From assembly GCA_008632985.1 (NCBI GenBank), contig QPGO01000188.1, positions 62,001-124,723 of the forward strand: a stretch of 62,723 nucleotides of DNA, read 5' to 3'. Positions 1 through 44,538 of the stretch are shown piece by piece; the first letter of the stretch is position 1; every line of letters starts with the position of its first letter. Made by a program: the position numbers and the translations under genes. The DNA comes from Psammoneis japonica (Eukaryota). A model generated the notes under the pieces. The model did not search any database and was not told the DNA's origin. It was given only the letters and a program-made list of their open reading frames with translations.

Positions 1-776
1 GTGGGCCAAGCAAGGTGTGGGTTGAACCGTTTGAGGTCAAATGAGATTTTGCTTGAAACGTTTGAGGTCCAACAAGATTTGGCCAGGCTTGTTTCAAGTC
101 AAAAAATTTTTTTGCTCTGGGCCAAGCAAGGTGTGGGTCAAACCATTTGAGGTCAAATGAGAGCTGGCTGGGCATGTTGGGTGTCAAACTTGTTTTGAGC
201 ACTTGGAAAAACAAGGTTTGGGTTGAACCGTTTGAGGTCAAATGAGATTTTGCTTGAACCGTTTGAGGTCAAACGAGATTTGGAAAGGCTTGTTTCAAGT
301 CAAACTTGTTTTGAGCACCTGGCAAAACAAGGTGTGGGTTGAGCCGTTTGAGGTCAAATGAGATTTTGCTTGAACCGTTTGAGGTCAAACAAGACATGGC
401 CGGGCTTGTTTCAAGTCAAAAAAGGTTTTTTGCTCTGGGCCAAGCAAGGTGTGGGTCAAACTGTTTGAGGTCAAATGAGAGCTGGCTGGGCTTGTTTGAG
501 GTCAAAAGCATTTTCAGCACTTGGCAAAACAAGGTTTGGGTTGAGCGGTTTGAGGTCAAATGAGATTTTGCTTGAACCGTTTGAGGTCAAACTCATTTTG
601 AGCTCTTGGCAAAACAAGGTGTGGATTGATCCGTTTGAGGTCAAACAAGATTTTGCTTGAAATGTTTCAGGTCAAACAAGATTTGGTCAGGCTTGTTTTA
701 AGTCAAACACACTGTGAGCACTTGGCAAAACATGGTGTGGGTTGAACCATTTGAGGTCAAATGAGATTTTGCTTGA
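1..776. repeat. Complex tandem (satellite/subterminal) repeat with ~116/~86-bp subunits and a ~318-bp higher-order period; core motif CCGTTTGAGGTCAAA
   Basis: GCCAAGCAAGGTGTGG recurs at 5, 121 and 439; TTTGAGGTCAAA recurs many times; the array is truncated by the window start. Confidence 0.9.
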
Positions 777-2198
777 GCCAGCCATCAAATTGAGGATTCT
801 GCAACATCAGTTGCTCATGGTGACCAACGGATGTGGTTTGCGGTGTCTCTGATGCAAGGTCTGTTGCAGAAGGAGCATCCTCCGGTTGACAGTCCGATGA
901 AGTTCTACAACGGCAGGAAGATTGACTGCGCCAGAGATGCCAGTGCCACGACGGAAGATTTGTTGTGCAACAAGCTGACCTTGTGTGGATTGTCAAACAA
1001 GCACTGCGTGACTGTGTGCAATGGTTGGATTTTTGACTCCAATCATCCACATGCCATGTCTGTGACAAATCTTGATTGCTGGAGTTGGTGTTTGGGCAAC
1101 CGGCCGGAAGAAGCAGCCTGTGTGACCAATGATTTGTCAAAGAAAATTGTGCTGATGCACCAGCTTGATTTGCCCAAGTTCATCTGCAGAAGATTGAACA
1201 AGCGCAAGGTGATGGAGATCCAAATGTCATTTGCAATGCATGTTGGGTGTGATGCGTGTTTGTCTGCATTGCGCAGGCAGCAATTGAATTGCTGTTTCGC
1301 TGGGTCACCCGTCTTAGAACCAAATCTTGGCACAAGTCTCTGTGCTCTGAGTCAACGAGTCCCCAACAAATTGATCCATCCGGTGTTTTCCTGCAGAAGC
1401 CCACCAAAATGGCTTCAATCTGATTCATTTGCAACAAACGTCTGTTGGGTGACTCTTCGCTGGTGATGGTGGCAGCAAAATGACCCTTGCAACCAAATGT
1501 TTCCTTGTGCTCCAGCTGGACATGAAGCAGACGGTTGGGTTCCACAGCAGCTCCGGTCTTGCCCTCTTCTAAATGCACAAGAACTGTTGGTTCTTTGTGA
1601 CACCTCGATTGCGTCCTCTGCCGTGGGCATGTCGTGAGGCACCGAAGTGTCCTCTGCCGTTGCATCACCAGCAGAAGCAGGGTCAGTCTCCGCCAGAGGA
1701 GGAGAGACAGGGGAGTCGTCGGCCAACACAGGTGATGTAGCGGCCTTGAGTGACGACAGAGTGTCCCGCCAAGAGGATGCCGTTTTTGAATGGGCGCTGT
1801 TGGCAGGGGCCATGGTGAGTGACAATGAAAATAAAATTCACTGTCGATCCACCACGCAGGGGCAGCATGTGTCGGATCTCTGTGGCATGTGCCAAGGGAG
1901 ATCGCGATGCACGCAGAAGGTGTGCTGATGCCCATGCAAGCAGCCGCAAAAACAAACAGCAATGGCGTGAATCAGCACCCGAGATGCAGACGTCGTTGTC
2001 ATCGACAGAGCGGCAAAGTTTGCAATGCAAACACTCTCTGCCGGTGTCGTCGATGATGAAACGAGAGGAAAATGTGTTGTCGGCAGTGGCAGAGGAGCCT
2101 TGCTTGCACGTCTGTGTGAGCATTGCTCACAACCTGATGGAGATCCCTGTGTCCAAGCAGGAATGACACAATCCGCTAAGACTTTGTCATCTTTTCCA

Positions 2199-4715
2199 TC
2201 AACAAGAGAAAGAAGATGCTGCCATGTCTTGTGCATTGTGCAGATCTGGCATCACCCCTTTAATCCAAAACTCCAATGACAGTGCATCAGAGTCCACAGA
2301 GTTCTGCTTCTCACCAGTTGAAGCCACATGGTCCATTGCAGCAGTGACATTGAACCTGCTGTGCATGTTTTGAGCAAAATTTTTGCTGCATGAATGGAAT
2401 TCTCTTTTGGTCTGCTTCAGCACCTTTTTGTCTTCCCCTTCCCAACATGCTTGCACTGGTCCTTTGTCATGCATGTTGTCAGGAAATGACAACATGCTAA
2501 GAGCAGTGTGTCTTTCATGCCAGATTGGGGACAGATCTTTGCCATCTTTGCCACGGCTTTGTCACATTGGCAGATCTAAAGAGTCCATGTCATTGAGAAA
2601 TCGCGTGATGCAAAACCTGAGACATGGCTCCAAATCATCTGAGCTGAATCCTGCAAGTGTGTGCGCATGCATGTTTGAGGCAGAGTTGAGCATTTTAACA
2701 ATGTCCGACACCTGCAATTCAGCAGATGGTGGTGTGCCTGGAGGGTTTGTCACAGCCATGCAATCTGCAACACATTCACACAGCTCTTCAGTGTTGCCGT
2801 CCATTGGCAATCCACACATTTTCAGCCACTCCTTGTCAAACGGCATGGTCCAACTTGCTTGTTTGTCGACAGGCAGAAACACCACAGGTGGGCCATCCGG
2901 TGTTTCAAGCACTGAGTTGGCAAAGAATTTAAACAAGCGTCCAAACGCAATCCAATTTTTGTGTTTGAATCCAGCAAAACTGTCCTTTGTGAATGGACGT
3001 GCATTCAACCAAGGAAGTCTCAGTGTTTCACAACAGCGTTGCACCTGGTTCATCAGCAAGGACTCTGCAATCCGCTCCCATTGCCCGCATGAGCAACAAG
3101 CCAAACCTTTCTCCATCAAATGCATCACAGCCTTTGCGGTGTTGCTGAGACCATGCATTGGTGCCTCCTGCCACTGGTCAGGAGGTGTCCTGCCAAACCA
3201 AATGTGAGGCATTTGATGCATGCAGCATTTCTTAGGATGATGTTCACGATCAAGCAAAAGCACTTCTGACAATTCTGGATTTTGACTGGGTTCGTCTTGC
3301 AACACTTTCAACAGATTGCAGTTGTTGGCATTTTCCAAAATGCCAGAAACAACTTGTGTGTTCACACTGCAATGATCACCCAGATGAGCTTTGCCTTCTG
3401 CTGTGGTCCAATGGCTCTGACAGACATTTGTGCGCATTTTAATTGCAGCAGTTTGGAGCAATTTGCAGGTCCATTTGAAAGGAGGGAGAGCCGATTTACC
3501 ACCAAGTTCACTGAGTGGAAAGTTGGCAGGAGGGGAGGCATGCAGCAACGGATTGGAAGCATCAACAAACCAGTTGGCGCACAACCCAAATGGACATGTC
3601 AAGTCTGCAACCGTTTGAAAACCAGCGACAAGGGTTTCTTCAATGCATTTGCGACAGTGGATGCAAGACACAAGATGACAACCAACTTTCTTGATGTTCA
3701 CAACATGGCTGAACAATGCATGATTGGTTTTTATGCCAAGTTTCATCCCAGCAATGGTGCATTTTTCCAGTTGGTCTCCAGATTGCAACCAGACATCTGC
3801 AATGGGTTTCATCAATTTGCCAGTGCTGCCAACAAACATGGGTGGCACCTGCTCAGATTGGAGAAGGCAAATTTTCCTTTCAACCTCAGACACAACCATG
3901 TCATGATTTGCACCTTTGGGCCCAAGTGCAACAAGAAAGCAGTTGTTGAACTCACCAATGTTGGCTGCAGTCACACTTGAGTCATCAGGGAACAAAGGTC
4001 CATGATGTGGTTGGCAAAGAATCCCAATGTGGCAAGCCCAAGTGCCATTGACATTGGATGCAATGAGGCTTGTGGCAGGGTTAAAATCATCAGAAAAGGT
4101 TTCAAAGGCTGTGACAAGCAATGGATGATCAGTGTGCTCATCATCGCTCCAAATTGAAATGGAAGTGTCGCAAATTTCCTTGACCCAACAACACTGTCTT
4201 GCATGGAAAACCAGTTGATTTTTTTGAAACAAACCATTTTCGTCAGCGGCTTCACACAGATTTTCCAGGCCGGTTCCGAGTGCTAAAAAGTTGCACAACA
4301 AGTCAATCACACTGCAGTGGGAGTGTGTGTTTTTGCCAGAGCTGAATGTTTGCATTGGTGCCAAGGGCACCATCTTCTCAAGCAAGTGCAATCCTTCAAA
4401 ACACATGTTGCAAACATGTGTGGGTGTTGTGGGCAGAACAAACCAAAAGTGATCCAGACTCTCGTTTCTTTCCCCCACCAGCGTGGTGGGTTCCAACTGT
4501 CTGAACAAGTCCAGCAACATGTGCTGCTGTGGCTCAGACAGGGACAACATCAACTTGCCCAGCAACAAGTGAATGTCAGCATCCTCGTCTGACACTTTTT
4601 CTGCAAATTGTGTGTTGTCAAACAAATTCTTGGCAAGCAGGTGACGCTCTTTGCTGCCCAGTTGTTGGCAGCAAAAAAAGGATCGGAACAAGTGCGTCAA
4701 ATGGAGAGCAACCAA
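2199..4715 (-). mobile_element. Degenerate DNA-transposase-like ORF (CACTA/Plavaka-like DDE family) with a SAP-like motif
   Basis: Motif order FSDDFNP ... SGDQLEK ... EAPMHGL, then GPVQACWEG in the next frame (2199-2495), resembles the D..D..DxMH..GPxxxW.E pattern. KEWLKMCGLPMDGNTEEL is SAP-like. The 717-aa ORF contains no Tyr. Family assignment is from memory of motifs only. Confidence 0.5.
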
Positions 4716-7700
4716 TCAGTGATTTCAACGTTGGATGGATTGGCCAAATCTGTGGAAACAGCTGGAGGGGTGGCAAACTGGTCGGCTTCTTCCAACATGT
4801 TGGTCAAATGCAGGTCAGCACCGAAAAGGTTTGCAGACATGACAGAATCATCTGCTGCAAAAGTGGTGACATCATTGTCAGGGACTGCCGCAGAATGAGA
4901 ATCTGCATCATTGGTGGGGGGCGAGGCAGAGGGAGCAACGCGTTTTTTGCACTGGTGGATTTGTGTGTCATGGCAGCTGGCTTCCGCAAAACTGAGAATG
5001 CAGTCTTTGCATTGAGGACAGTCTTTGCAAACAACCCAGCTGGCGCTGCAGGGAGGGCGCTGGAGGGTCACCGCCCATTTGCACGGGCACTTGTCAAATG
5101 AGATTTGAAGAGCAATTCGACGGCAATGAGGGCATTCAAGCAAATTGGTTGGACAACTGCCACACAAACCACGGGAGAGCGACACAGGGTCCACAGATTG
5201 AAAGGACATGTCTTGCTGACAACAGCCAATGATGAGTGTGTGTTGACAAAAAGGGCAGAGGCTGCTCAGGCCACCATGAGCACAGTGGCGATGATGTGAG
5301 AAGGACATGTCATTGGTGATGTGGACATCTGTGACTGCCGGTGTGAGCGGCGACATCACATGAGGAACTTGGGGCAAGAAGAACAATGATGACGAAACAC
5401 TGTCAAGTGGAAAAATTGTGCTGACATGGTGGGAAAGGAGGCGCAGCTGTGAGGTGACATGTTGGGGGGGGGCAGAAATTGAGCTCACCCAACATGCAGA
5501 GCACCCCCCAACATGCAGACACCCAGGATGGCACATCTTGGGGGAGAAAACCACTCCCCCATCATGCCAGAGCATTTCTGACCAAAATGCCCCCCAACAT
5601 TTGGCAGGTTGGGTTGTTCTCGTTTCCTGTGTGGCAACAATTTGTCAACTGCAAAGGACGAAAATGTTTTTGCTGCAAAGCTCCGATCAATCCCATGAGA
5701 AGAGCACTGCTCACTTTGAAACAGCGACACAGTTTCCCCATGAGAGCACCTGCCCTCTTTTCCTGAAAATCAACAAATCATGTGTTTTGTCCAATTGTTT
5801 GCAGAAATTCAAGCTCTCAGTGCAATTTGCACAATGTGCTGCACTTGATGCTTGTCAACAAACAAACAAATTTTGCTTTGCCAGCTTGTGAAGTTTGTCA
5901 ATGAATGCTGCTTTGCCACTGGCCTTTCTTCATTTGCTGCATGCTTTGTTCCCTTGCCAGACTGGTGTGGCCCCTGGATCATCCTCGTCATTGTGCCCAT
6001 CACTGCCGCAGCTGCTGCAGGTTGCAATCCATTGTTGGCTTGTGCTGCAGCAATTGTGCTGCACAGCTGGTTGTGCCAGAGATGCCCGCCATTGCATTTG
6101 TTCAAACATCTCTTTTCAACATGGAATGTGGAACACTCTCGCCAATGCTTGTGATCTTTTGGCTGCCACAACTGACAAAATTGACCAAAATTAGGATCAA
6201 ATGCTTGGCCAATGAATCTGCTGCTGTTTGTGTTGTTTGCTGGTTGTTTGGCAATCAAGTGTCCAACCCAAGCAGTGCTTGCAACTGCAGTTTTGGATTT
6301 TTGTGTTCTAAATCCTTTGTTGACATGCACACCGATGTCAACCAAAGCATGCACACAAACATTTGCACCTGAAAAAGTCATCATTTTTGGAGCAAACCAC
6401 TTGCGCCCATCCTTCCCCCCACATCCCTCCATGTCATTTCCTCCATGGGTCACCCCAGTCAATTTCCAGCCCAGCTCTTCAAGCGCATCTTCCTCCAAAT
6501 GGGCCAGGACAAAATGTTTGCACCACTCATTGCAAGAACAGTCTGTCATTTAATCAAACGCACTTGTCACCTCACAAACACAACTCACAAATCTCTCCAC
6601 ATGTTTGCGATGCAGTTTCTCTTTCTTCCGCATGTGCTCATGTCTGCAACGGAATCTCTCTCCTTTCTTGTCTTCACATTCTCATGCTCGCAATTGTGAC
6701 TTGGACCTCTTTGCTTGATCAACTCCAACATCCAACCATTGACCTTCTGCGGGGTCAAATTGCAGAACACCATCCCGCCACACATCCGAACACCTGACAG
6801 GGTGCTGCAAACTGCTGCTTCTTGGTGGAAAAACAAAACCAGCTTCCCAGCATTGAATGCACTGCTTTTTTTGTCCATGGCAAGTGTGCACACACCTGCT
6901 GACATGGAATGGAAGCCAAGCACTCCACACACTCCATTCCTGTCCATTCCATGGGTGGGCAAGCCGGTGCTTGACATCCTTTTCAACTCATGAACGTCTC
7001 TCTTGTCCAAAGCCAATCACGTGTTGCCCCCCCTTGATCCAGCACAGCTCTCATCTGCAGCTTTCACATCTTCAATGGGGTGGTTGAAATGATGCCATTG
7101 ATGCAATGCATGTTGCCTGGCCTGTCCTGGTGGGTTGAAACAAATTCCCAATGCTGCCTGCACTTGTGTGCCTCCCTCACTTGTTCAATGATCTCATCCA
7201 GCCAGCAAATTGCACCAGCATTGGAGAACATGGGTGTGGCAGAGCACATGCACTCAACTGCTTCATCACTCAATTGCTGCATTTCTTCCTGCACTTTGCT
7301 CATCAACCAGAATTTTGTCCATCTGCCAATCCTTCCAGATTCTGTGGAGACTGTTGTTTTCACATCACCAGGTGCCACTTTGGTGCAGGCCAACACTGCC
7401 TGTTTGGTGACAGCTGCCAAGCCAAAAACAGCAACTCTGTTCCACTTTACAGCTGTCAGCAGTTGGACATTGAAACTTCATTGGTCAATGCACCTCAGCG
7501 CCCTGCATGGACCGACAAAGTTGCAAGACTCAACAGCTTGTGGCCAAGGAGGAGACAGTGCCACCAGCCCACAGTTGGTCATTGTCAGATGGAAAAATCT
7601 CCCTGAGCAAAATTTTTGCAAAGACTTTGAATTTGTTGAAGACAACCACACAACTGTGCAAGCATTTTTGATGGAAAAATTTGCTTGTGTTGCCCACCAA

Positions 7701-9913
7701 AAATTGATCTGTTCAAAAGACACTCAAGACTCAATTTAGAAGGTGCAAGGTGGCCCATTTGACTCAGCATGAAATTTTTCCTGCCGGCAGAAATGATCTT
7801 GTGCAAACTTTTTTGATGAGTGGGGAAAAAAGTTGGCAGCTGTCACCAAATGGACAGTGCAGCATTTGTGGCAAAGTCCAAGGCAAAAGCAGAGCCATGT
7901 GTGGCCACAACAAATGTGTCAGATTGAACAGCCATGCTTGTTCTTCCAACTGATGCATCTCATGCACAGAATGAAGCAGATTGTTTGGAGTCACTCTGTT
8001 GCCATGCAGCCACAAATTCAAACCACAAGGCATCTGGAGAGAAGGCCAAGGCAAAAGTGGAGCATCACAAGGCTGACAAAAATGTGGCAGATTGAGTGGT
8101 CATGCTCACTCTCTCCTTTGACCCATCTCATGTGCAGAGCACAGCATGTCATGTGCTCCTTCTTGTGTTGCATGGTCACAAATGCAAGCCACAAGGGCTC
8201 TGGAACATGAGCAACATTGATGTGGCTAAAACTCAATGGCAAAGTTTGTTCTTTCCTTGCTCTGCCACAAGGGGCCACTTTGTGTTGATGTGTCAGTGCG
8301 TTGGTCATTCTCGTTGGTTGTCATGGGAGCAAATGCACACACCCCTGACTGCAGCCACCGCACATTGCCACACTCCATTCATTTTTGTTCCCCTCCCCTG
8401 AGCCCTTTCAGGCATTTCTTCCCCAAAATTGCCCTCATTCCCCAGTTTCCCAAAAAGGGTGAGGCAACCCCCCCCTTGCCCTGGCCATTTTCTTGGGGGA
8501 TGGCCTGCACACTTTGTTTTCCTTCCTGGTGGAAGCACACTTTTTTGAAACATTCCATCACAGCCTTTGACCATTGCTCAACTTTTTTAGACGCGTGTCA
8601 AAGAAAATGCATTTTTGAGCACAAAGACTGGATCTTCTCACAATTTGCATCTTTGGAGTGTCCCACCATCTCCTCCTGTCACATCCTGTCATCCTCTGCA
8701 CTGCATGGTGCAGCCTCAAGAAGGATCTGTGCCATCCACAAATGTCATTGTGTCCTGACGCAACCAAGGAGCTTGCTGTCTGGCCGCCAGCTGCCACACC
8801 ATGAACCACACCAAGTGTTTTCTTGTCAAGCAGCATTGACTCTGGTCCCATTGTGACAACTTTGGTGTGTTCAAGGTGTGGAGCTGGCTGATCAATTTGC
8901 CAATCATCTTGCCAAACTTTTGGCTGAAAAACTGGTTGAAGGTGTGTGGATGGCAGATTGCTTGGAGCTGTGCATCTTTCATTTGTCACATGTTGTGGCT
9001 TGGTCAAGATGCAGGATCTCTGCTCTGAACTTGCTCAGTTGTGCGAGCTTTCTCATTTGCAACTTCTGGGCTGATTGCCAAAATTTGTGAATGAGAGAAA
9101 GAGAGTCATTTTGTCTGTCCAGCAACCCAATTGTTTGTCTGTGTTTGTGCCTCCATCCATCGGAGCTGTCATTCAAATTTCTTTCAGCACCATGTTTCAG
9201 CTCATTGCTGTGGAGCCGTTGCATGAGCTGTGTGTTGGAGCTTTTGTCATTTGTTTCAACAGTGCTTTTGGTTGATTGTTGTGTTGGTTGTCAACCCTGA
9301 AGCTTGTGCTGATGTTCAGCACAAGCTTGCTGGAAAATGGCCAATCACAACATTCAGCAGATTCTGACTGGATGGCTTGCAGTTTGGTCTCCAGTGGTTT
9401 TGTGAAGAACTTTTGACTGAATGCTCATCACCACTCATTGGCAGAGACCCTCCACCTGCTTCCCCTCTCTGAGGCTTTGGTCTGGACCAGACATCCAGCA
9501 GCCAGTGCACCAGCAAGACACTCGGAGCTCAGCTGACATGCGAGCTTCGACTGCAATGATTCAGGTGAATTGCACACATTGTCTCAGACTTCTCTTTCCA
9601 CCTTTTTGGATCAGTGGAGTGACAAGGCACCAAGAATTCAAAATTGTTGGTGTCTTCTGTCATCTGGCTGAGAAAGAAATTCACATGTTTCATTGCACAA
9701 CACATGACCTAGCTAGGACGAAAAATCTGCAATTTATTAGAAATTGCTTCGTTGGATGCCAAGTTGTGTGATTGCACCTCTAGTGGCATGCCATTGAGAG
9801 CAACAGCGATTGAAGAAGTAACACACTGACTGTCACCAACGCCTACAAGTCGATGTGTGCACATAACATGACAACACTGCAAACCTTATATAAATTGTCT
9901 GTCATTCAATTTA

Positions 9914-21144: not shown

Positions 21145-21689
21145 GTTTATAACTGTTTCAACAAAGTTCTGGAAAAAAGAATACGCACGAGTTGCGACTC
21201 CCTGGCGTGGTGTTGCAGCAAGCAGTAGTTGACGTTTTTCACGCTGTGGAGTTGATATGGTGAAAGGTTGTTAGTGCTCTGGGCTGTGCCTCTTCGTCGC
21301 ACCTCACGCTTGCTGTCTTCGACCTTTTTATTAATAGAGCAGAAGAAACAGTGAGCAAGAGCAACGACCAGATGCCGGGGAATGGCTATGAAAGGAAGGT
21401 GTAACCTGGTCCTTAGCCGTGTGCCGTGCGCTGACCAGAAGGCGCGGCATTTTGAGCCATCAGTATAAAAACACGTAGCTTCTACGTATGATGGGGATGA
21501 CGTGGCGCGGGCTTATTATTGTTCTACAACCCGCTCCGAAAAACACTACTGCTTATGTGTCTTTTTTACATGGGGCCCTACTAGATTTTTTTAGCTGTCC
21601 ACCTCGGCCGCCAATCTCGATCTTTGTCAGAGCTCGAAAGGGCAAATGGAATCCTGCATTTTTCATTCGACGCCCAACGACGCCACCAT

Positions 21690-22915
21690 GACATTCAGCG
21701 CCCACGACAGCTCAATTTTTGTCACCTTGTGGTGACAAGAAGAACCTTTGTAGAGCGGGAGCACAATGTGCGCGATTGTGAGGTTGTTGTCTTGGCGCGC
21801 GTGGAAACACTTGTGATCAACTTGTGTTTGATTTTAGACACTGCAAAACCGTGCCGCAGATTTGCAAACAGCGGCAATGGCGGCCACATCATCACAGGAA
21901 AAGGGACAAATGAACACTTTTCCATTGAATCCACCACATTTGTTTTGGTCACAGAGGGTTCTGTCATCGTGTCAGCCACAACTCCAGACGCCTTGCGGCC
22001 TGCATTTGTGACGACACGACAAAAGTGCAATTTTTTGTGTGACGAACAATGCAGCGCACTCTGAACATGAGTTGCCACAATTCATCTTGTCATTGTGCTG
22101 CAGATCATTGCTCAATCAGCATCATCAACTGCACTGAGTGGTGCAATGATCGCCACAAAGGGGCTCCAAAGTGTCGCTGCATGTCATGCCCACTTTCATT
22201 GTTGAGATCCCTTCTTGTTTGTGTCATGAGACATAAAATCTGGCAGACGTGCCCTCACATCTTCTAGATTTTTGTAAAAAAGACACAAATCCATGTGTGC
22301 TCATGACCCAACAATTTCATGTCTTGTTGACACAAATCCGCGCTTTTTGTGTTTTCCTGAGTGACCCACTGCACCAGCTGGCAGCTTCCAGCAGAGAGCA
22401 CTGCACGACTGTTTGTGACGGACTGCAAAAACTTGCATGATCTGAGATGAGGCAGCCGGTGGCTGCCTGGTTGGTGGTGGTTGCCAGTTGCTTGCTGGGG
22501 TTGGATGCCTTGTCCATCGAACCTTTGTCGCTGCCAGCACAACTGAGTGTTCATGCCGATGGATCAGCTGCTCCGGCGACACTTTGTTTGCATCCAGAGT
22601 GCCCCGCTGTATCGGCTGCTGCTTGGTGGCTGCTGGTTGCAGTTGCCGGTTGCTGGTTGCCGGTTGGTGGTTGGTGGTTGGTGGTTGATGGTTGGTGGTT
22701 GCCGGTTGCTGGTTGCTGGTTGTGGTTGCCGGTTGCCAGCTGCTGGTTGCCGGTTGCCGGTTGGTGGTTGGTGGTTGCTGGTTGCTGGTTGCCGGTTGCC
22801 GGTTGGCGGTTGCCGGTTGCCGGTTGCGGTTGCTGGTTGCTGGTTGCCGGTTGCCGGTTGCCGGTTGCTGGTTGAGTCACGAGTGGGCTTGACTCACCAC
22901 TTCACACTCGATCGA
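21690..22915. other. Small TpA-depleted island B (TE relic plus minisatellite)
   Basis: Near-absence of TA between two normal genes; Tyr-poor, Cys/His-rich spurious ORFs. Confidence 0.8.
22620..22875. repeat. 7-bp minisatellite (CCGGTTG / CTGGTTG / GTGGTTG)n
   Basis: About 35 directly visible tandem heptamers. Confidence 0.95.
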
Positions 22916-23169
22916 CTTAGGGCTAGGGCCCTACGTGCGAATCATGCGACGGGCTGCCAAGCAGTGTCACACGTCAGCGCTGCCAACTCCCAACTTTCAG
23001 TCTGAAGTCCATTGACCAGCCTTATCCTCTCTACTGTAGCTATCTGAAACTTGCAAAGTTTGCTCGCTCTTGAATTAATACACTTTTTACTATGAACGAG
23101 ATGAGACAATCAGCCTCCGCACAAATAGTTTACTGTACTATGTAACATTGATGAGTTTCTAACGCTGGC

Positions 23170-27710: not shown

Positions 27711-29164
27711 ATGGCGTCTTCTTTGCCCCGTCGTTCTCCAATGTTGAGGTCAAAAGACCGCATAGTATCATGCCTAAGCGTTGTGTTGCTCCTGATACAG
27801 GCATCCTCGAGTTTCATACCTGATCCACGGATCCATCGTCTACGCTTTACAACAATAACATTGCACACAACAACCACACCAGATACCGAGTATTATTCTG
27901 CAGTCCCTATTCGACCGGAACCCAAGCAACAAGAGCAGCGCATCACATTGACTCGGTTCCTACAAAATAAAGTGAAAAAGAATCCAGAACTGTCGAATTT
28001 AGATTTTTTGTTATCGATTCAAATGGCCTGTAAAACGATTGCAAGTCTCGTTCACAGAACCGGCCTCGTGTACAATCGCGACGATTCTCGAGAATATTAC
28101 CAAGCCACCGAGTATCCACCGTCGGATGGACGTTTTTATTCCATGAAGCGACTGGATCAACTATCGACCAATGTCTTGAAGAATGCATTGCGATTTACAG
28201 GAAAGGTAAACTTGGTCACTCCTGCAGCCGAAACGGACGGAGAAGAACCGGCCAACCATCAACCCGGTGTGCTGATTGCGAGTGCTATTGATTCCAATTA
28301 TGGTAAGTAGTTGATATGTTTGTGACTGAGATATTGTAGTAGTTGTGATTTCTCATATTGATTACCAATATCTCTTATTTAATTTCTTTCTTTGCAACAA
28401 ACTATACAGTCGCCGTACTGGATCCTTTGGATGGAAGTGGCAATGCTGACGCATCCATTTGTACAGGCACGGTCTTTGGTGTCTTTGAAAATACATTACA
28501 AGAAAGCGATGATGGCACTGACAATGTGGTGGTGGGTGGGTCCGATGACAATAGCAATTCCCCATCCACATTGCTCGATGCCGTCTTGCAACCGGCAAAC
28601 AAAATGGTGGCTGCTGGATACTGTTTGTACAGCAGTGCCACCGTTCTAGTCTTTACACTCGGAGAGGGTTGTGTTTATGGCTTTACGTTGGACCCGCAAA
28701 CCAAAGAGTTTGTCATGACGCATGCGAATTTGACCATCCCCAAACGTGGCAATGTGTATTCCTGCAACGAAGCCAATTCCGAAGGATGGTCTCAAGAGTT
28801 TAAAGATTACCTCGTCTCCTTGAAGACTGGAAACAATCAAACCAATCGTCGATATGCACATCGTTATGTCGGAAGCATGGTGGGTGATATTCATCGTACG
28901 CTATTATATGGTGGCGTCTTTTGTTATCCAAGCGATTCAGGATTGCATCCTCAGGGGAACTTGCAACTGCTTTACAAGTCGGCACCCATGGCGTTTGTTG
29001 TAGATCAAGCGGGAGGTAAGGCTACCAATGGGGTTTCGGACTTGCTCAATATACGACCCGAGCGCATCCACCAAAAGTCACCGTGCTTTATGGGATCGCC
29101 TGACGATATTGATGAGCTGCAAAGCTATCTAGTTTCAACAAAGAGTAATTCTTTGTCGGAATGA
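27711..29164 (+). CDS. FBP: Fructose-1,6-bisphosphatase class 1, plastid-targeted; exons 27711-28302 and 28410-29164
   Basis: ASSSF bipartite signal; SIQMACKTIA, DPLDGSGN, RYVGSMVGDIHRTLLYGG, IHQKSPCFMGS. LQLLYKSAPM replaces the canonical LRLLYECxPM. Confidence 0.92.
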
Positions 29165-30624
29165 GATAGTCAGGACGATGAACAGGACTGAATAGACATT
29201 ATCCTACCTTCTTATCCAATCATGTGCTGATAAATACATAAAGAAACAAGGATTTAGTTGCCACTGTCTGCACTGATTGTTTTGTAGCTGCTACGGAACT
29301 AACAGGAGTGGACGCTCAAGGCTCGCCAACAGGGCATACAGCCATGCAGAGCGTTGGGAGGTGCATTGCCAGCCTTCTTGCAAATGGCATGTTAAATGTG
29401 AAATGACTCGGCGGACCAGCCATGGCAGCAAGAGGATCCATCATTTGAAAAGAAAGAGACCCACTTGGATTCGTTGCAATGGTCGTTTTGTCAACGGACT
29501 GGAATTGTGAGGGACGAAGGCATGCCCCCACCGACTTTGTTCGCCAAGAAGGCCAGAATAAAAAAACTGTTTCGACCATTCATTCTTGACATGCTTCTTG
29601 CAAATGGTTCACGCCCCTTGCTTCATTGATGTAAGGGATGAACAAGGGGCTTTTGCCAAGTTGACAGGTGAAAGAGAGATGAGACGTGATGAGATGATGG
29701 TGAACTCAACATCGTCATCACGAACACCACCGCGGGCATCACAGCCAAACAACCCAACAACAAAGACCATTCAGTGCACAATGCTGCCACCACCAGAGCA
29801 CCCAATGAAACCACCATTGTTGCCACAAAAACAAATGCATGGCATGTCTCTCTTCTGCCAAATGCTGACATGAACTGGCATGATGGTGACTGGCACTGGT
29901 GCAAGTTGATTCAACACATGGCAGCCTTGACGGCAGCCGCCACCACAACCAATTTGGGACATGCTGCTGCCGCATCTGGTCGGGCCCTGCTGAGTTGATG
30001 ACACCCCACACTTTGGATGAATTGTTGACACTTGCTTGGAAAATGCCGTTGCAGATCATGTTGATTGGCAAAGCTGCAGGTTGTGCACCTTTGCTCTCAA
30101 AAGAATGGCAAAATGAAAAACAGCCCCCCATTCTCTCTTGTTTTGAGTTTGCCCACAACTTTTGAGGAAGGGTCCAAAGCTGCAGTTTTGACATTGATGT
30201 CAATGCTTCAAATTGGGGCAAAGAAGTCTGCAAAAGCTGTCAATGTGCAGAGTGTCAACTTGAGGCAAGATGAAGCAACCACAAATGGAAAATGTTTTTG
30301 TCTGCACTTGTGTGTGTTTTGCACAAGCGCCACAGCACCGTTGCTCCCAAAAACTCCCTGATGCCTCAAAGGCTTGCTTTTCACTGTTTGATGGGTTCCA
30401 GTCCTGAGTGGAACTCCGTGTGACATTGGGCTCACAGAATTCTCCATGGGCCCGCAGAATTCCATGTGCGAGCTCCGCAGCAAATTTGTTGAGCAATTAA
30501 AGTGCAAATCATCGCCAACAGAAAAAGAGGTGATTTTGTGAGCACAGCTCCTCTCCACACTTGAAGCACATCATCAACAGTTTGCCCGGGGGTGCATTCT
30601 GCAGACATTAAAGAATGTGCCCAG

Positions 30625-31075
30625 CACATTTTCGTTCTCACAAATGTTGAAAACAGAAAGCCTTTGGCTTTGCAAAACAGGGAGCATGAAACAATTTCAT
30701 CAAAAATCACATGCAGCCAACTGCACGCAACGTGCGCGACATGCGATGCGATCCAAAAAACTCTTGATGTCACAGTTCAGCAGTGTGAGGTCCCACCCAG
30801 AGCTGGAATGCATCTGGTGTGGGTTCTTGATTCCGGGCTCTCCTGCAGTCAGCCCATGCATGATGCACACAGAGCCTGCATTCTCACAAGTGCTGAAAAT
30901 GGAAAGCCTTTGGCTTCGCAAAATGGGGCCACCAAAAAATTTTGCAGAACATCATTTTGCAGAACATCACACGCAGCCATGATCTGTGTGCATGACATGT
31001 GATGCAATCCAAAAAAACTCTTGATGTCACAGTTCAGCAGCACCAGGTCCCACCTGAAGCTGGAGTGCATCGGGT
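30625..31075. repeat. Degenerate tandem duplication (~250-bp period)
   Basis: GAAAGCCTTTGGCTT.GCAAAA and ATCCAAAAAA.CTCTTGATGTCACAGTTCAGCAG...GGTCCCACC each occur twice. Confidence 0.8.
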
Positions 31076-32539
31076 TGACCAAGGAAGCGGTGGCAGGTGG
31101 TGACAAGCGGTGGGTGGTGACTTTGGGAGAGAGAGTTGGGTTGTTGGCGGGGTTGGTTGGCTGCCTGCAGACAAGAAAGCACTTTTCTGCAAATTTCTGT
31201 TGACACATTGGGCGCTTAAAACAGTGGTTCAGTCCTCCATGTCATTGCCTCCTTGTCCACAAAACTGCCTGGAACAGTTTGGGGGAAAGAGGAGTGAACC
31301 CAGTCCAATCCTTGGGGCGAACATGGGTTGCAAGCACCCAAGCATTTTCCTCTCAAAAATGTGAGTCTCTCATTTGGCACATTGGTGGAAAAGTCTCAGG
31401 CATTTGCTTTGTTTGGGCCGTTTCATCATCTTGCCATCATTTTGATCAATGTGTCTTTTTCCAAAGGTTCTTGCACTGCACGCCCCTGCTGTTGCTGCTC
31501 AATTTTCTGAGTTTGGGATCAACCTTGATTGCAAGGACAAGACAAGAGACAGCAACAGCTCAAACGGATGCTGTGCTCCAATTCTTCAGAAGAGAGAACA
31601 GAAGCAAGTCCATTGCAACCCCTGGGGAGATCAAGAAGAACTCAAGTGTTTTCCTCTAAAAAATGCAAGTCAATCTTTCAGTGCATTTGCATCTTGCATT
31701 TTGTTTTGTTTTGTTTGGGGGGTGTCATTGTCTTGCAGTTGTGTGCTGCAGCAACATTCCACCAGGTGACCTTTCTTTGTGTTGCACTCTCTGTCGGGTG
31801 TTGGGCAGTGCAGCCCTGTTCTGCACCAGCTCTAGAGTGAAGCTTGGGAATTTTTGGCAATGTCTGTGATGCACACCATGCCTTGGAAGTTGTCTGGACA
31901 AGGGCTTGGGCTTGCTTTTTGAAACTGGGAACCACATTTCTGTTGATCATCTGTTGTCCATCATGTCAAGTGTGCTGTGCTGATGTGGAAGATTTGTGCT
32001 TTGAAAATTGCTGGGCATGCACCCGGCACTCTTGCCGTTGTTGATTTGGCTGGTGCACAGTGCCCTTTTGTTTTGATGCCTTTGTGTTGAAAGTTGAAAG
32101 CTCCGACACATTTGCTTCATGATTTTTGCACATGTTTGTGTTTTTTGTGGACAAGGGATGCTGTGACGCAACTTTGGCAATGTTGGATGATGCGTTGCTT
32201 GCGGTGCAAAGGAGGTGACTGCTTGATTGGAGTGTCAGCTGAGCTGCTGGACCACATCCAAGAGAATGCAACAAATGAGGGGGGCTTGATGAGTGGCACA
32301 AAAGACCGCTGTTGAGTTGGTCAAGGAGCTCAAGAGCAAGGGAGCAAATGCCGTCCATTCTCCAAATGCACCAACTTGTGCTGAACATGCTTGCCTCATG
32401 AGTGGTGTGGGAGAAAACTTGAAGAAGAAAGGTCACCAGAATCCACAACAAAATGCAATTTTGTGAAGAAAGTTGGGATCCAGGGTGGGGCTCGAGGGGC
32501 AGGCATTGGAGCTGTGTGTGTGCGGCGGGGGGGGGGGGG

Positions 32540-32852
32540 GCAACAGTGCTTTTGATCATTGGCAGCAAAGGAGGCATCACACAGCAGGACCTGGAGCAGA
32601 CAGTGGTGCAGGAGTGCAACAGTGCTTTTGGTCATTGGCCACTGGCAGCAAAGGAGGCATCACACAGCAGGGCCTGGAGCAGACAGCGGCGCAGGTGCGC
32701 AACAGTGCTTTTGGTCGTTGGCGGCAAAGGAGGCATCACACAGCAGGACCTGCTGGAACAGACAGTGGTGCAGGAGCGCAACAGTGCTTTTGGTCATTGG
32801 CAGCAAAGGAGGCATCACAAAGCAGGACCTGGAGCAGACAGCGGTGCAGGAG
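32540..32852. repeat. Tandem repeat of ~75-85-bp units (about 4 copies)
   Basis: GG[CA]GCAAAGGAGGCATCAC...GCAGGACCTGGAGCAGACAG.GGTGCAGGAG.GCAACAGTGCTTTTGGTCATT repeated. Confidence 0.9.
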
Positions 32853-33599
32853 CGGCAGGGGAGGGGGTGGTCGTGTGGGTCCTGCTGGTGTCAGGGCTTG
32901 GAGATGGAGGCAAGGTTGGTGACGCAGCAGCCATTGTTTGTGGAAATGTTGGTGGTGGTGGGGGTTGGTTGCTCTGAGGTGCTGGTGCTGGAGTTTTTGA
33001 AGGTCCGTTGGTTGGAGGTGGCGAAGGGGGCATGGCAGGACCTGGATTGGGCGGCAGCAGTGTGGGGCCTGGGAGACCCAGAGTTGGTGGAGATTGTGCA
33101 GGCAACAGTGCAGAAGAAACAGTGGGCTCAGATGCAGGGCCCAAGGCGGAAGCATTGGCCCTGGTCTCACCTTGCATCACACCGGGAGCATTGCAGGTGC
33201 AGATGACGAAGAGTCCCATTGCGGGTGCGTTGCTTGCACCGGGAGTTCAAATGACGAACTTCATGGGCAAGCCCGTCTTTTCAAAAATGATGCTCACAGC
33301 TGCACACACAGCACTGAAAGGGGTCTTTGTGTTGCATCATGGATGACAACACAGTGATCATGCTTTCGAAAGTTCTTGCTGCCACAAATGCAATTGACGC
33401 AGACAGTGCGCATGCAGTCTGGCCGCCTGCAGAGCATCACCACAGCGCGGCCGGTGAGTTTTGTGTCCACGTGTGTCGAGGTTTTCCCCCCCGACCGACC
33501 ATGTCAGTTGTTGGCGAAACAGCAACAGCACATCGGCTGGTGCAGTGAGACCACACCGCAGCAACAGCGCACTGTCATTTACTCAGTGCATTTGTCATC

Positions 33600-35232
33600 C
33601 AGTGACGGCACAATTCGAGATTCCCAACCCACTGAAAGCTGATCGAGACTTTGGCAAAGAGCATGGTTTAATGCTGCAACATGTTAATGAAGTCAGTCAC
33701 GGTGAATTCGAAGAAGCAGCCGAGCTTGTCATGGAGCAGTCAAATTTCACAGAAGATGAACACCGGAGTGCCCTGCAGCCGTGGCAATCCAACGATGCCG
33801 TCGTGGTGGCAAGACGTTTCACTGCATGCTGTTGCGGCTTTGTTGCAAAACAGGGCCAACCGTGGGGAACACTGCTCCCAAGTCATTTGTGTGTCACTCA
33901 ACGGTGACACGGCGTTTGATCCGCGTCAGGAGACAGCTCATGGGGCGACAACGTCACGCTTGGCTTGGGAACTGAGCGCCCGAGAGGGGAATTTCTGTCG
34001 TTTTTGCTCCAAGTCTCTGATTTTTCAAGTGCAGATGTGTGGTTGACGGATGAAAGCAGCCATGTCATGCTTCTCATTGATGAGTTGAGTGCCATTCATC
34101 ACAACATGGAGGGACACCAGGACATGAGTGAATTGCTTGTGACTTTGTGCAGCAAGATGGGTGCGCTTTGCTCTGCTCTGCGCATCTGTGCAGCACTGCT
34201 GATCTGTTGAGAGGAAGACATCCAGGAGGACTTCACCCCCCAGCAGAGCTTTCCAGGCGAAAACATGAATGGGCTGAGATCCCTCAATTCAGACAATCAA
34301 GTGCTTTCAAGGCATGATGTTGCAAAGCCATTCAGAACAACCATCGTTTTGGTGTGCCGTGCTTCGGGGGCGCATTCCCGCACTTGTCATCCAGACACGT
34401 GAAATTTCAACATGTGCCTCAGGTGCAATCATTGAACCCCGTCACCAGAAGGCATGCCAGAAGAAGAACAAGAACGGCACAAGCGCCTTTCAGAAGAACG
34501 ACGCAAATGCCTTTCTGCTGTGATGACAGGTGCATCGAACAGCTTCCAAACGAGCACAATTTGTTCCGGGCTTGTTCCCACAGGAGTGAGCGATTTGCAG
34601 CTATGGATGAAAGCGAGCCATTGTTTGCGTGGCCTCCTTTTGTGCTCGCTCAACGAAACATTCTAGGAAAGAAATGTCATCTTTTCCAGACCACATTGGA
34701 ACAACCTTGCTTGTTGACCGAACCAAGGCCTTTCTGATCATGATGTTCCGACATGTCAGGCGACAATTTTTTGGAACTGAGACTTGATGGATTTTTTGAA
34801 GTAGGCGTTTTGACGGTGTGCAAGCATGCTGTGCATGCATCTTTTCCAACCTGCGACTTCTTTCTCCTTCATCGTGAAGGCAAGAGAAAGTGGAAAGTCA
34901 TTGTGGGCTGCCAGTGCAAACAAGGCAGCGAGAATCCCAGCGAAGATGCATGGAAAGATGTCCCCACATCTGTCTGGATCGAAGGCAAATGTCGCAGGTG
35001 TCGTGTGTGGGGTGATGGGCAACGGGTTTCCATGAAATTGCACCGAGGTTGGACATTGCTGAGTGAATCCAACCAAGCTGATTTGCTTGGTGTTTCCGTG
35101 GCTGAAGCTCTTCCACAAGAGCCAGCAAGCAGGCAAGAAGAAAGACAGTGCTGCGTGGCCGAGCAAGAATGGGACGCACGCCATTTAGACTCACAAAACT
35201 CCCAATGCAGCGCAAAAAGACAGCGTGTGTAA
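33600..35232 (+). pseudogene. Degenerate multi-frame coding relic; C-terminal part resembles a PD-(D/E)XK/Crinkler-type nuclease domain
   Basis: Protein-like segments across frames (SRLAWELSAREG, VLRGRIPAL, CDFFLLHREG...VIVGCQCKQG) with Cys/His where Tyr would be expected. The family call is weak inference. Confidence 0.3.
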
Positions 35233-37180
35233 TTGGCGAGGTGGGTGAGAGATCAGCAATAAGTCCATTTAAAGATTGACACTTGGTGATGACAAGTTGG
35301 TCCCTCGGTTGTCTTTTTGAAACCGTTTTTTGTGAGTTGTTTCACGAACTTGTCGATGCGATTGCAGTCGAAGTGCCGCATGTCTTCCGAGAGTCAAAGC
35401 GCACCGTACGCAAGTCGGACACGAGCTCTTCCAGGATTCGTGGAGCTGTTGCTGTCGCTTTCACTGGTGGTGTCGCAGGCCCCTTGTGGAGCGCCGCTGC
35501 ATGCGGTGTGTGTGCACTGGTGCGATGGACTTGAATCTGCGCAGCATGATGAGCAGTTGTCTCGATTTGCCGCCGGATGATTGTGAGTTGATCCATCTGA
35601 CCGGCAGTTGGGCGTGCGGGTTCAACATTCAATGGGACTCAGCACCTGCCAGATGCTTTGAGACAAGCAGTGCCTGTGGCACCAGCAGTGCGGTGCACAA
35701 TCCATTTCTGTCTGTCCTGGAGACGGGTGCTGACGAGCAGCATGGTTGCCACCGCCCCCTGATGTGTGGTGGAAACTTTTCAATTTTGGCAGAGTGGGGT
35801 GAGTTTGAAAGTCTGCATGTGTGGACTCAATCCATTTTATTTTAACTGGCTGCCAGAGCTGGGGGCCAAGTTTGCCAGTCTGGAAAAAGGGGCACAAAAT
35901 CAGTCTCAAATTTGCCAAGCCAAAGTTCTTTCCTCTGACTGCACTTCATTGCAGAGAGAGAGAATCTTTTAGCACCATTGTTTGTCACCATTGGGCATCT
36001 GCTTCAACTTGAAAATGATTGCATGACAAAGAAACACAGAGGGTGGAAGAGCAGGGGTGTCAAACATTGGCATTGTGCCTCATCCCTCATCCCAAACTGT
36101 GTTGACACTTGCACCATGCAACACAAATGGGATCATGTTGGCTTCAATCATGTTTTAAATGTGCACTTTGTTCATGGAAAATGAAAACTGAGGGTGCGTG
36201 ATGACGGCAAAATCACAAGGTGGACTTGCTGCTCCATGCTGGGAGATGTGGCTGGCCTGCTTGGGTTGCAGATAAACAAGATTTCTCACCACCCCACACA
36301 ACCACGCACCTGGGACAGGAATCTCTTCTCCAGGTTTGTTGAGTCTTTTTCAAGCTCATCAGCAACAGGCAAGCGTTCTTCTGTCAAGATGACAGGCAGC
36401 TCCCCATTCCAGGGCTCTTCACACCTTCGAAAGTGGTTGGTTGCACCCTCAAAGCCAGGCCATGCAGACAAGACAACTCGACAACAGCCTGCCTTTAAAA
36501 ATGCATCAAAGGCAGGGTCAACATCTTCATGCAGCACACACTCTGTCCAGCAACTCTTCTTTCCCCAGAAATGTGGGTGAGTCAGCCAAGTCATTTGCTT
36601 CTGTTCAAATGCTTTCCAAAATGATTGATCTGAGAGACTCCATGTTGACCAAGCTTGATGGCTTCAAACTTGTTGAAGTGCTGTGCACTTGCTGGGACAG
36701 CAGTGCAGTGTTTCTTCAGTTCACCTTTTGTCAGTTGAAGGTCAACAGAGGAGGGGTTCTTCCTCCTGGCTGCAATGTCAGCCTTGGCCTCAGCCGCTGC
36801 CAGCTTCACACTTCATGCTCCTCTTTTTTGTGCTGCACACATTCGTGGACTTGCCATGTGTTTTTCCAGTCACCATTGCTGCACAGAGGGCTTGGTGTGC
36901 TCACATTTAACCATGACACAAACTGCAACATCCAAAACATCATTTGTGATCAAACCAAAGGCGCGCATGCATTGGCGCTTGTTGTCGAGTGCTGCGCTCC
37001 ACACCCATGAAGTTCCTGGGGCAAACTGGTGATTCGGCATCTCAACATGACATCAACAAGATCCTTGTCAGACCAGACATTGTTGGCCACAGCAACAGTG
37101 CCATGGACAGCCCTGTGCCATCCTCCATTTGCATCTCTGTGCCAAATGGGCATGATCAATCTTCTTGTTCTTGCCAGGCT

Positions 37181-37636
37181 GAACTTGCAACTGCTTTGCA
37201 AGTTGGCACCCATGGTGTTTGTTGCAGACCAAGCTGGAGGTGAGGCTGCTGGTGGGGTTTCTGACTTGCTCAACATGCCACCTGAGCACACCCATCAAAA
37301 GTTGCCATGCTTTGTGGGCTTGCCTGACGACATTGATGAGCTGCAAAGCTGCTTTGTTTAAAAAGAGCAACACTTCATTGGAACAAGATGAACACAGGAC
37401 TGAACAGACATTGTCTCACCTTCTCATCCAATCATGTGCTGACAAATGCACAAAGAAACAAGGGTTTGGTTGCCACTGTCTGCACTGGTTGTTTTGCAGC
37501 TGCTGCAGATCCAACAGGGGGGTTGACACTCAAGGCTCACCAGTGGGGCATGCAGCCATGCCGAGTGTTAAGAGGTGCATTGCCAGCCTTCATGCAAAAA
37601 ACAGCATGTGTCAAATGTGAAATGACCCAGCTGACC
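37181..37636 (+). pseudogene. Hypermutated duplicate of the FBPase 3' coding end plus 3' flank (source 28957-~29415)
   Basis: Collinear alignment; translates NLQLLCKLAPMVFVADQAGG...PDDIDELQSC versus NLQLLYKSAPMAFVVDQAGG...PDDIDELQSY in the gene. Confidence 0.95.
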
Positions 37637-42849: not shown

Positions 42850-44240
42850 ATTGACCACTCAGTGGTTGGTGATTGCAGACTTTTTCGTGTTGGTCAGTCG
42901 GTCCGGCAGTTGGGCAGTCCGTCCGAATTTTAGAGTGCGTCCCTCGGATTTTGGAGCGGCACGGGTTGTTCAGTGCAAACGAGTTTTGCTCGGATTCGTG
43001 TGGAGTGATCATTGAGGACATTGGAGGTCGTGGGGACATCCCAAAAAATTGACAAATTCCCCATGATGGGTGCATGGAACAGTTTTTCAGGAGAGCTCAA
43101 AAGTGCTGCAAAGCTGGGGTTGCCGGCGTGGCATGTTGAAAAATGCGCTGAGCTTTGAACAAAGAAGACAGCTTGTGTCGTGAATTCTGCGTGAAACAGT
43201 CAAATTGAAGAAACATGTCAAACAACAAGTGGTTTGTGCAATGCACCATTTCAGTGGCAAATTGGACAAAAAAGTGTGTCCGTGCACCTTGCCACAGTCC
43301 CAAAAATGGAGTGAGCTGTCAAACACAGCTGTCATCTGCATCACCTGTGCGCTGACCACACACCACCCTGCCCCCCTGCCGCTGCAACACCAGCTGCAGC
43401 AGCAGGGCCCTGCTTGTGCACATGCAAGCAGTGCAGCATGCAACAGCACGCACCCACACTCACAAAGAAAAACAAATGTCAGGCAGCTGTGCAGTCCGTT
43501 GGTGTTTGTTGTGTTTTTCGGTTGTGACTTGTGTCCAATTGTTTGCGGTGGGCATGACCGTGTGAGGCAGAATGACTTTGTGTTCATGTTGGGTGCATGT
43601 GAAGGCCAGTGTGCAATGGCCTCATTGCACACGAACATTGTGGGGATTGCTTCCTGTGGCTTGAATTGTGAAACATGGATCTGGGCAAGGAGAAGGCAAA
43701 GGAGTCTAAGAGACTGGCAACAAGAAAACTGTGGAAAAAAAGAAAGGAGCTGAAGAATGCAGAGAACGTCAGAGGAAGGAATTGGAAGACCAACATGCAG
43801 ACAGGTTGCAATGCAAGGTGGTGCAGAAAGTGGATCGGCAGAGCAAGGAGTCAGAGGACCAACACATCGAGAAAGGTTGCAATGCGAGGCAGCACAGAAA
43901 GTGGATCGGCGGAGCAAGGAGTCAGAGGACCAACATCGAAAGAGGTTGCAGTGCAATGCGGCACAGAAAGTGGATTGGCAGAGCAAGGAGTTGGAGGACC
44001 AACATCAAGAGAGGTTGCAATGCAAGGCTGTGCAGAAAGTGGGTTGGCAGGGGGCAAGGAGTCAAAGGACCAATGTGAGGAGAGGCTGCAATGCGAGGCA
44101 GTGCAGAAAGCAGACTGGCAGAGCAAGGAGTCAGAGGACCAACATGAGAAGAGGCTGCAATGCAAGGCAGTGCAGAAAGCAGACTGGTGGACATGTGCCA
44201 CAGAATCATCCAGGAGGCATGTTGGCCATTCTCAATGAAG
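42850..44240. other. TpA-depleted island D
   Basis: Near-absence of TA between two normal genes. Confidence 0.8.
43775..44190. repeat. Tandem repeat of ~60-63-bp units (about 6-7 copies)
   Basis: GAGGTTGCAATGC[AG]AGGC.GTGCAGAAAG.GGA.[CT]GGCAGAGCAAGGAGTCAGAGGACCAACATC repeated. Confidence 0.92.
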
Positions 44241-44538
44241 AGAAGTAAAGACGCAACACTCCAACAAAGTGCTGCACTCTCGATGTAACGCACGTCCCAT
44301 ATAACCGTGACAAGATGGGACAAAAGGTGACAGACTTGGGAATGTGTGCGTGTGTGATTGCATGCAATGGAAAATCATGTGTTTTGTGTGAGTCGAAACA
44401 TGGCAAACTCGAGCTGAGTGTACAGCATAAAAGCGTCCTGCAGCTGCTGCAAGCACATATCATGACCATTCTCTCTAGAAAGAATACAACAACCCCAGCT
44501 TTGATATATTTTTATATAGTCTACACAATCACACTTTT

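Follow-up and report, generated by a model that had tools for sequence, protein, structure and literature searches.

Flank-dependent retention of TA dinucleotides in repeat domains of a contig from the diatom Psammoneis japonica

The stretch of Psammoneis japonica contig QPGO01000188.1 analysed here (positions 62,001-124,723 of the forward strand, 62,723 nt; hereafter the window, to which all counts and positions refer) consists of two kinds of DNA that alternate along its length. A dinucleotide scan showed that TA is nearly erased from five domains (36.3 kb in total, 110 TA), whereas the non-depleted remainder (26.4 kb) holds 1153 TA and has CG close to expectation; the domain boundaries are sharp within about 100-200 bases. 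We found that the few TA left in the depleted domains lie predominantly between a pyrimidine and a purine (YTAR). The change is specific to TA, proceeds from A:T to G:C, is confined to the repeat domains, depends on the flanks in a graded manner over two bases, and shows a matching bias in its products. These observations make it probable that a flank-dependent mutator converts TA to TG or CA in repeat and transposon domains, one strand at a time, sparing YTAR sites longest.

Leftover TA and the graded flank rule

A preliminary description of this DNA had put about 18 of the roughly 25 TA left in the region 690-8600 in the contexts TTAA, CTAA or TTAG. The exact count is 19 YTAR among exactly 25 TA (TTAA 7, CTAA 7, TTAG 5), the six others being TTAC (2), CTAC, GTAG, ATAA and TTAT (1 each), and the eight sites named as examples were all located within one base (1315, 2177, 2261, 2930, 4284, 6192, 7737, and 8588). 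In the non-depleted DNA, YTAR accounts for 171 of the 1153 TA (14.8%), which predicts about 3.7 of 25; the excess in 690-8600 over this baseline corresponds to a Fisher odds ratio of 18 (p = 2.9e-11). By domain, YTAR makes up 19 of 25 TA in D1 (1-9709, previously called domain A, which includes 690-8600), 4 of 9 in D2 (21593-23022), 22 of 34 in D3 (29394-39624; 17 TTAA), the single TA of D4 (42932-44245; CTAA), and 19 of 41 in D5 (49089-62723), with 3 of 3 in the distal part of D5 (56297-62723). Pooled over the five domains, the figure is 65 of 110 (odds ratio 8.3, p = 2e-23). The count of NTAN tetramers in depleted and non-depleted DNA thus agrees with the claimed YTAR enrichment, the leftovers not being proportional to the background (65/110 vs 171/1153).

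As a second baseline, the CA and TG steps with the same flanks were counted inside the depleted DNA. The ratio TA/(CA+TG) was 0.0525 for TTAA, 0.036 for CTAA/TTAG, and 0.020 for CTAG; most other contexts gave 0.003-0.014, and ATAT gave 0 of 490. In addition, the totals of TA+CA+TG+CG per kb within given flanks (N-YR-N) in depleted DNA were close to normal in eight of the ten flank classes, as expected if steps were converted while their flanks stayed unchanged.

The ratio of TA in depleted to that in normal DNA also fell in steps: 0.90 for TTAA, 0.405 for CTAA/TTAG, 0.106 for CTAG, 0.081 for CTAC/GTAG, 0.067 for GTAA/TTAC, 0.065 for ATAA/TTAT, and 0.060 for GTAC, with the lowest values for ATAG/CTAT (0.017), ATAC/GTAT (0.015), and ATAT (0 of 92). 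If the base after A is read on each strand, every TA has two half-sites, and the enrichment of these among the leftovers was 2.47-fold for TAA, 1.27-fold for TAG, 0.56-fold for TAC, and 0.25-fold for TAT. The second base after A matters as well. A purine there protects, with odds ratios of 3.2 (after A), 2.3 (after G), and 4.2 (after C); after T, with just 16 half-sites remaining, no such effect was seen. Among the TAC sites, TACG is one of the better retained (enrichment 0.79, vs 0.12 for TACT and 0.31 for TACC).

Two kinds of model were fitted to these counts. A decay (Poisson) model that gave each half-site base its own parameter had a deviance of 15.0, compared with 51.3 for a plain pyrimidine/purine (Y/R) rule. 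The best fit was obtained with an equilibrium model, in which the leftover TA are set by the ratio of their regeneration from CA/TG to the two half-site removal rates added together: with four half-site levels its deviance was 10.3 on 6 degrees of freedom (p = 0.11), against 20.0 for its Y/R version and 98.6 for the uniform model. The fitted rates were A:G:C:T = 1:2.1:8.4:17.3, and 1:3.9:24:26 in the most saturated domains. The flank rule is therefore graded and not binary, with retention highest in TTAA, lower in CTAA/TTAG, far lower in CTAG, and lowest in the rest. Combined with the second-base effect, this rule makes pyrimidine-TA-purine runs such as TTTAAA and TTTAGA the refuge of TA.

Lost sites, product direction and rival explanations

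The window contains an unmutated and a mutated copy of one sequence. A duplication of about 460 bases joins the end of the fructose-1,6-bisphosphatase (FBPase) gene (28957-29418, + strand; the last 59 codons and the 3' flank, with 25 TA in the aligned part) to a copy 8 kb away in D3 (37181-37637, + strand), which is 79.7% identical to it. Pfam matches to FBPase and FBPase_C lie in 28349-29164 and a C-terminal FBPase fragment at 37011-37358, and tblastn indicated that the last 59 codons are the only coding part duplicated. None of the 25 TA of the gene copy is kept in the D3 copy: 12 became TG, 12 became CA, and one became TT. The single TA of the D3 copy, a TTAA at 37569, must be newly made, because the unmutated copy reads TTGG there. 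In saturated DNA, part of the leftover TA must accordingly have been regenerated from the abundant CA and TG, and many of the leftovers may be of this kind. Since the gene copy was spared and the copy in the repeat domain was mutated, the targeting appears to follow the domain rather than the duplication, presumably through chromatin. At four or five places (alignment columns 204-205, 279-280, 287-288, and 457-458), CA in one copy faces TG in the other; such double transitions fit either a repeated passage through TA or CG intermediates or a loss of TA in both copies. A purine/pyrimidine-collapsed BLAST, tried as a way of extending the duplicate, returned mostly noise.

Another source of ancestral sites is the copia (Ty1-like) retrotransposon of D5 (49714-56296, + strand), with long terminal repeats (LTRs) at 49714-49989 and 56021-56296 and an RVT_2 match (E = 1e-20) in the open reading frame (ORF) 53284-56073. 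This element is less saturated than the other domains, with 36 TA left, 15 of them YTAR. Its LTRs are 90.6% identical, and 22 of their 26 differences fall within TA, CG, CA or TG steps (the other four lie outside YR steps). Two TA are common to both LTRs, both TTAG, while none of the six CA/TG-discordant LTR sites is YTAR. The earlier statement that both LTRs keep TTTAG twice is correct for the 3' LTR (56071 and 56239) but not for the 5' LTR, which has three (49764, 49793, and 49932); two TTTAG sites are common to both. The copia family is hugely multicopy in public sequencing-run contigs (word depth about 70,000-150,000, vs 50-100 for the flanking unique DNA), and less mutated copies, at different stages, are present in the same sequencing sample.

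In a young stretch of the element (49714-50366, + strand), the ancestral TA can be read from these other family copies. At 21 of the 40 variant rows compared (40 of 807 in total, so that the list of lost TA is incomplete), the window has TG or CA where other copies have TA, and these comprise 13 purine-TA-pyrimidine (RTAY) sites, 7 mixed sites, and 1 YTAR site; the six TA kept are four YTAR and two mixed. Survival was accordingly four kept and one lost for YTAR, compared with two kept and 20 lost for the others (Fisher p = 0.004). Tandem arrays were rejected as a further source of ancestral TA, having too few units and, in the variable columns seen, changes derived from CpG.

The flank rule also implies that repeat proteins should carry Cys or His where their relatives carry Tyr. 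A near-identical unmutated copia pol protein was not found, the closest homologues being about 64-66% identical, so that ancestral codons can be inferred only at conserved Tyr columns. At 34 such columns (50 and 21 homologues aligned with MAFFT), the window has 21 Cys, 5 His, 4 Tyr, and 4 other residues. Under the flank model, 18.8 +/- 2.1 Cys would be expected among the 26 Tyr changed to Cys or His, and 21 were observed; hence, an additional transcription-type strand bias is not needed to explain the excess of Cys over His.

The direction of conversion provides a test that is independent of the leftovers. N1-TA-N2 becomes N1-TG-N2 through the half-site TA-N2, and N1-CA-N2 through the half-site on the opposite strand. 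With gene DNA as the ancestral proxy, the gain of products in depleted DNA followed the half-site ranking T>C>G>A in all six asymmetric flank classes (for example, ACAA 134 vs ATGA 35, and GCAA 393 vs GTGA 91). When the polarised conversions from the FBPase duplicate, the copia family copies, and the conserved Tyr codons were pooled (n = 71), 40 were contests between a TAY and a TAR half-site, and 31 of these 40 had proceeded via TAY (one-sided p = 3e-4). The maximum-likelihood Y/R rate ratio by product choice was 3.5 (95% support 1.7-7.6). A faster attack on T-A-pyrimidine, the preference proposed in the preliminary description, thus has support from tests that make no use of the leftover sites; the plain Y/R form of that preference, however, is rejected, with TAA an outlier and CTAG barely spared.

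Several points weigh against a mutator that spares YTAR. The ancestral composition of the repeats is available only by proxy (gene DNA and the same-flank CA+TG), GYRC contexts are about twice as common in depleted DNA, the whole data set is one 62.7-kb window, and the copia family comparison is a small sample. The size of the effect depends on the method, being 8-15-fold from the leftovers vs 3.5-fold (1.7-7.6) from product direction. Without the Tyr codons, the contests split 16 to 7 (p = 0.047) and the Y/R ratio drops to 2.3 (1.0-5.9), and the seven informative copia family rows divide 4 to 3. The old FBPase duplicate has lost all four of its YTAR sites, its one TTAA is new, and ATAC became ATGC (via TAC) in three of three cases there, contrary to T>C.

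Some of these points would suit a different explanation, in which a flank-blind mutator erased all TA and the present ones were remade from CA and TG by C-to-T changes favouring C after a pyrimidine (sunlight-type damage at TC and CC), giving YTA and TAR. The new TTAA at 37569 and the loss of all 25 ancestral TA from the FBPase duplicate, four YTAR included, are in line with it; so is the 1-6% TA/(CA+TG) in YTAR contexts, a level that neutral C-to-T change of a few percent would be expected to produce, and 13 non-CpG C>T/G>A differences do occur over 453 aligned FBPase bases. Nevertheless, context-blind regeneration is rejected (chi-square 97), and the most favourable version, with mutation restricted to C preceded by a pyrimidine and no further removal, predicts 46% YTAR among YTAR plus mixed sites, where 45 of 62 were seen (p = 1.7e-5). 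Regeneration alone also leaves the flank-dependent choice of product unexplained and fails on the young copia element, which shows little background divergence (4 of 26 LTR differences outside YR steps) and has two TTAG common to both LTRs. As a full account, we consider it unlikely.

A composition artefact, in which the repeats were rich in TTAA, CTAA and TTAG before any mutation and the leftovers mirror this ancestry, is far less credible still. The gene baseline is indeed biased by the avoidance of in-frame stops, with TTAA making up only 31 of its 1153 TA; however, the N-YR-N totals per kb are alike in eight of ten flank classes, a 5- to 20-fold spread persists after same-flank CA+TG normalisation inside the depleted DNA, and only one of the 21 ancestral TA recovered from the copia leader was YTAR (13 RTAY, 7 mixed). 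Preservation of TA motifs by selection or function (TTTAAA-like signals or TTAA transposon target sites, for example) could account for the two TTTAG sites retained in both LTRs, but is the least probable of all, since the bias is common to five unrelated domains, tandem arrays and dead gene fragments included, and neither the graded dependence on single flank bases nor the product asymmetry would be expected from it. Nearest-neighbour duplex stability was also discarded as a cause: by standard stacking values, AT and AA steps are similarly weak, yet they behave in opposite ways.

A candidate mutator and the domains on which it would act

The mutator favoured here would change TA to TG or CA in repeat and transposon domains by an A:T-to-G:C transition at either base. 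Each TA would present two targets, one per strand, and the rate at each would be set by the bases 3' of A on that strand: a pyrimidine after A would permit fast attack (with T no slower than C), G would be slower and A slowest, and a purine at the second position would slow the reaction further. In terms of the opposite strand, R-T-A would be fast and Y-T-A slow. A YTAR site, above all a TTTAAA-like one, would then offer two slow targets, so that its TA lingers, and this should hold equally for an original TA and for one newly made from CA or TG by ordinary C-to-T change.

Such a pattern suggests an enzyme that works on a single strand at each event. Tentatively, and at less than even odds, we propose as the first candidate an inosine-forming DNA adenine deaminase from the TadA/ADAT superfamily. 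Adenine deamination would be the simplest chemistry; a thymine-modifying enzyme that reads R-T-A would leave an identical pattern, because the two readings leave the same record and sequence alone cannot separate A from T as the target.

The depleted domains contain tandem arrays, the copia retrotransposon, and dead gene fragments. Their TA observed/expected is 0.00-0.17, TG and CA observed/expected reaches 1.3-3.0, and much CG is gone; AA observed/expected is 1.19, indicating that TA alone is affected and that AA, CA and GA are not. The genes between the domains (EF1-gamma, a protein kinase, an ion channel, C2/SMP, and fructose-1,6-bisphosphatase) are intron-poor and have TA observed/expected of 0.5-0.8. 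D1, which starts with a tandem array (4-776) and ends at a sharp edge (9709/9710), has TA observed/expected of 0.03-0.09, CG of 0.07-0.59, and TG/CA of 1.4-2.0. The copia region (49089-56296) is out of step with it, combining CG of 0.74-0.87 with TA of 0.06-0.17. As CpG decay and TA loss do not run in parallel between the two, the erasure of TA seems to be faster than the decay of CpG.

Owing to the loss of TA, the repeats should fill with long false ORFs, because the stops TAA and TAG disappear. The depleted domains do contain many overlapping long ORFs on both strands, the longest of 717 residues (2562-4715, - strand, in D1). Homologue and Pfam searches with this ORF were both empty, neither a Pfam family nor a homologue was found for the D1 ORFs, and of 63 further ORFs searched, two came from the intact FBPase gene and 61 from depleted DNA; among these 61 only three had Pfam matches, one of them weak and below the cut-off. 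The long ORFs of the depleted domains are thus probably artefacts of the lost TAA and TAG stops, with TGA alone remaining.

Other features of the domains were also recorded. D2 carries a 7-base microsatellite (22617-22874, found with TRF) and, at its edge, a telomere-repeat-like TTAGGG-CTAGGG-CCCTA stretch (22916-22934) that supplies three of its nine TA, and D4 carries a 69-base tandem array (43770-44179). D3 contains two dead gene pieces, namely the FBPase fragment and a fragment of a GH36 N-terminal domain (35336-35842, + strand; Pfam E = 1.4e-14). In D5, the copia element is accompanied by older repeat DNA up to the end of the window. The two long ORFs of the element overlap out of frame (53284-53498), and about 190 residues found in its relatives are missing near residue 739 of the ORF 50769-53498. 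Five TA (TTAT, ATAA, CTAA, TTAG, and GTAC) occur within 34 bases at 51132-51165, a patch that may represent either a local escape or younger DNA.

Significance and comparison with known systems

Hypermutation of TpA to TpG/CpA is itself already on record for Bigelowiella natans, from a 2026 preprint (Mettrop et al., bioRxiv 10.64898/2026.01.13.699255); a full-text literature search on TpA hypermutation in algae, diatoms or repeats brought up this preprint and nothing on diatoms. New here are the half-site model with its graded rates, the effect of the second base, the tests on product direction and on the young element, and the distinction between survival and regeneration. The flank rule may serve as a fingerprint able to name the enzyme, and it sets an in vitro test for candidate deaminases or thymine modifiers, in which oligonucleotides with TAT or TAC are compared with those with TAA. 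A natural, motif-specific A:T-to-G:C editor of chromosomal DNA would also be of interest for base-editing work.

Repeat-induced point mutation (RIP) changes CpA to TpA, thus enriching TA, and mutates both copies of a duplication. This process of Neurospora and other ascomycetes is the subject of PMC2621366 and PMC7882544. In both systems, a transition mutator specific for one dinucleotide is aimed at repeats, inactivates transposons, and produces domains of skewed composition with sharp borders. Their directions are opposite, however, since TA is destroyed and CA/TG gained in P. japonica, where moreover one copy of the duplication (28957-29418) keeps 25 TA while the other (37181-37637) has lost all of them.

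The flank rule speaks against two textbook analogies, and the resemblance of the mutator to either enzyme is weak. ADARs are animal enzymes that hypermutate double-stranded RNA; they make A-to-G changes, prefer U before A, and act on repeat-derived nucleic acid. Table 1 of PMC10661471 gives 5'-UAG as an ADAR hot spot; G after A is thus favoured there, whereas TAG is slow in the window (retained 1.27-fold; rate 2.1 for G vs 8.4 for C and 17.3 for T), where the changes extend to tandem arrays that are not transcribed, occur on both strands, and are limited to TA.

For TadA and ADAT2-ADAT3, together with the TadA-derived editors, the likeness lies in A-to-I conversion that is read as A-to-G, and in the target: in the tRNA anticodon loop, U33 precedes A34, which in bacterial tRNA-Arg is followed by C-G. 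From this target context, T-A-C would be a plausible preferred context in DNA, and T does precede A here if A is the target (an enzyme acting on T would look the same). The TadA/ADAT2 motif is given as 5'-ACG in the part of PMC10661471 that concerns it. In the window, TAT is lost at least as readily as TAC (enrichment 0.25 vs 0.56) and TACG is better retained than TACC or TACT, so that the similarity to the UACG recognition of bacterial TadA drawn in the preliminary description does not hold at the level of flanks. The natural enzymes, furthermore, act on RNA loops and not on chromosomal DNA.

The closest system is that of B. natans, in whose integrated giant-virus and virophage DNA A:T-to-G:C hypermutation is restricted to TpA, and for which an adenine deaminase, an ADAT2 homologue, has been proposed (10.64898/2026.01.13.699255). 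Both show TpA to TpG/CpA transitions (in P. japonica, at 24 of the 25 FBPase TA, at 21 of the 40 family rows, and as Cys or His at 26 of the 34 Tyr columns). Both are limited to foreign or repeat DNA, which in P. japonica takes the form of five sharp-edged domains with the neighbouring genes spared. Over the long term, both leave DNA that is poor in TpA and rich in CpA+TpG, a signature that in Bigelowiella extends to reverse-transcriptase and DDE genes (10.64898/2026.01.13.699255). The differences are that Bigelowiella, a chlorarachniophyte, belongs to another lineage; that 231 de novo TpA mutations were recorded in cultured mutation-accumulation lines there, whereas the signature here is a fossil one; that TA observed/expected is 0.45 in its nucleocytoplasmic large DNA virus (NCLDV) region, compared with a far more saturated 0.03 here; and that CpG decay accompanies the loss of TA here.

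A chromatin-targeted DNA-editing defence, acting strand-wise on 5'-T-A-Y(-Y) and common to diatoms (stramenopiles) and chlorarachniophytes (Rhizaria), might therefore be considered, with an old enzyme of the SAR clade (stramenopiles, alveolates, and Rhizaria), either an adenine deaminase or an R-T-A thymine modifier, as its agent; we offer this as a speculative possibility, about which doubt outweighs belief. If true, this enzyme would have a natural sequence specificity on double-stranded chromosomal DNA that is not known from any characterised deaminase. The main text of the preprint contains no flank analysis of the Bigelowiella TpA mutations, and the flank rule described here can be compared directly with those 231 mutations to look for a shared mechanism.

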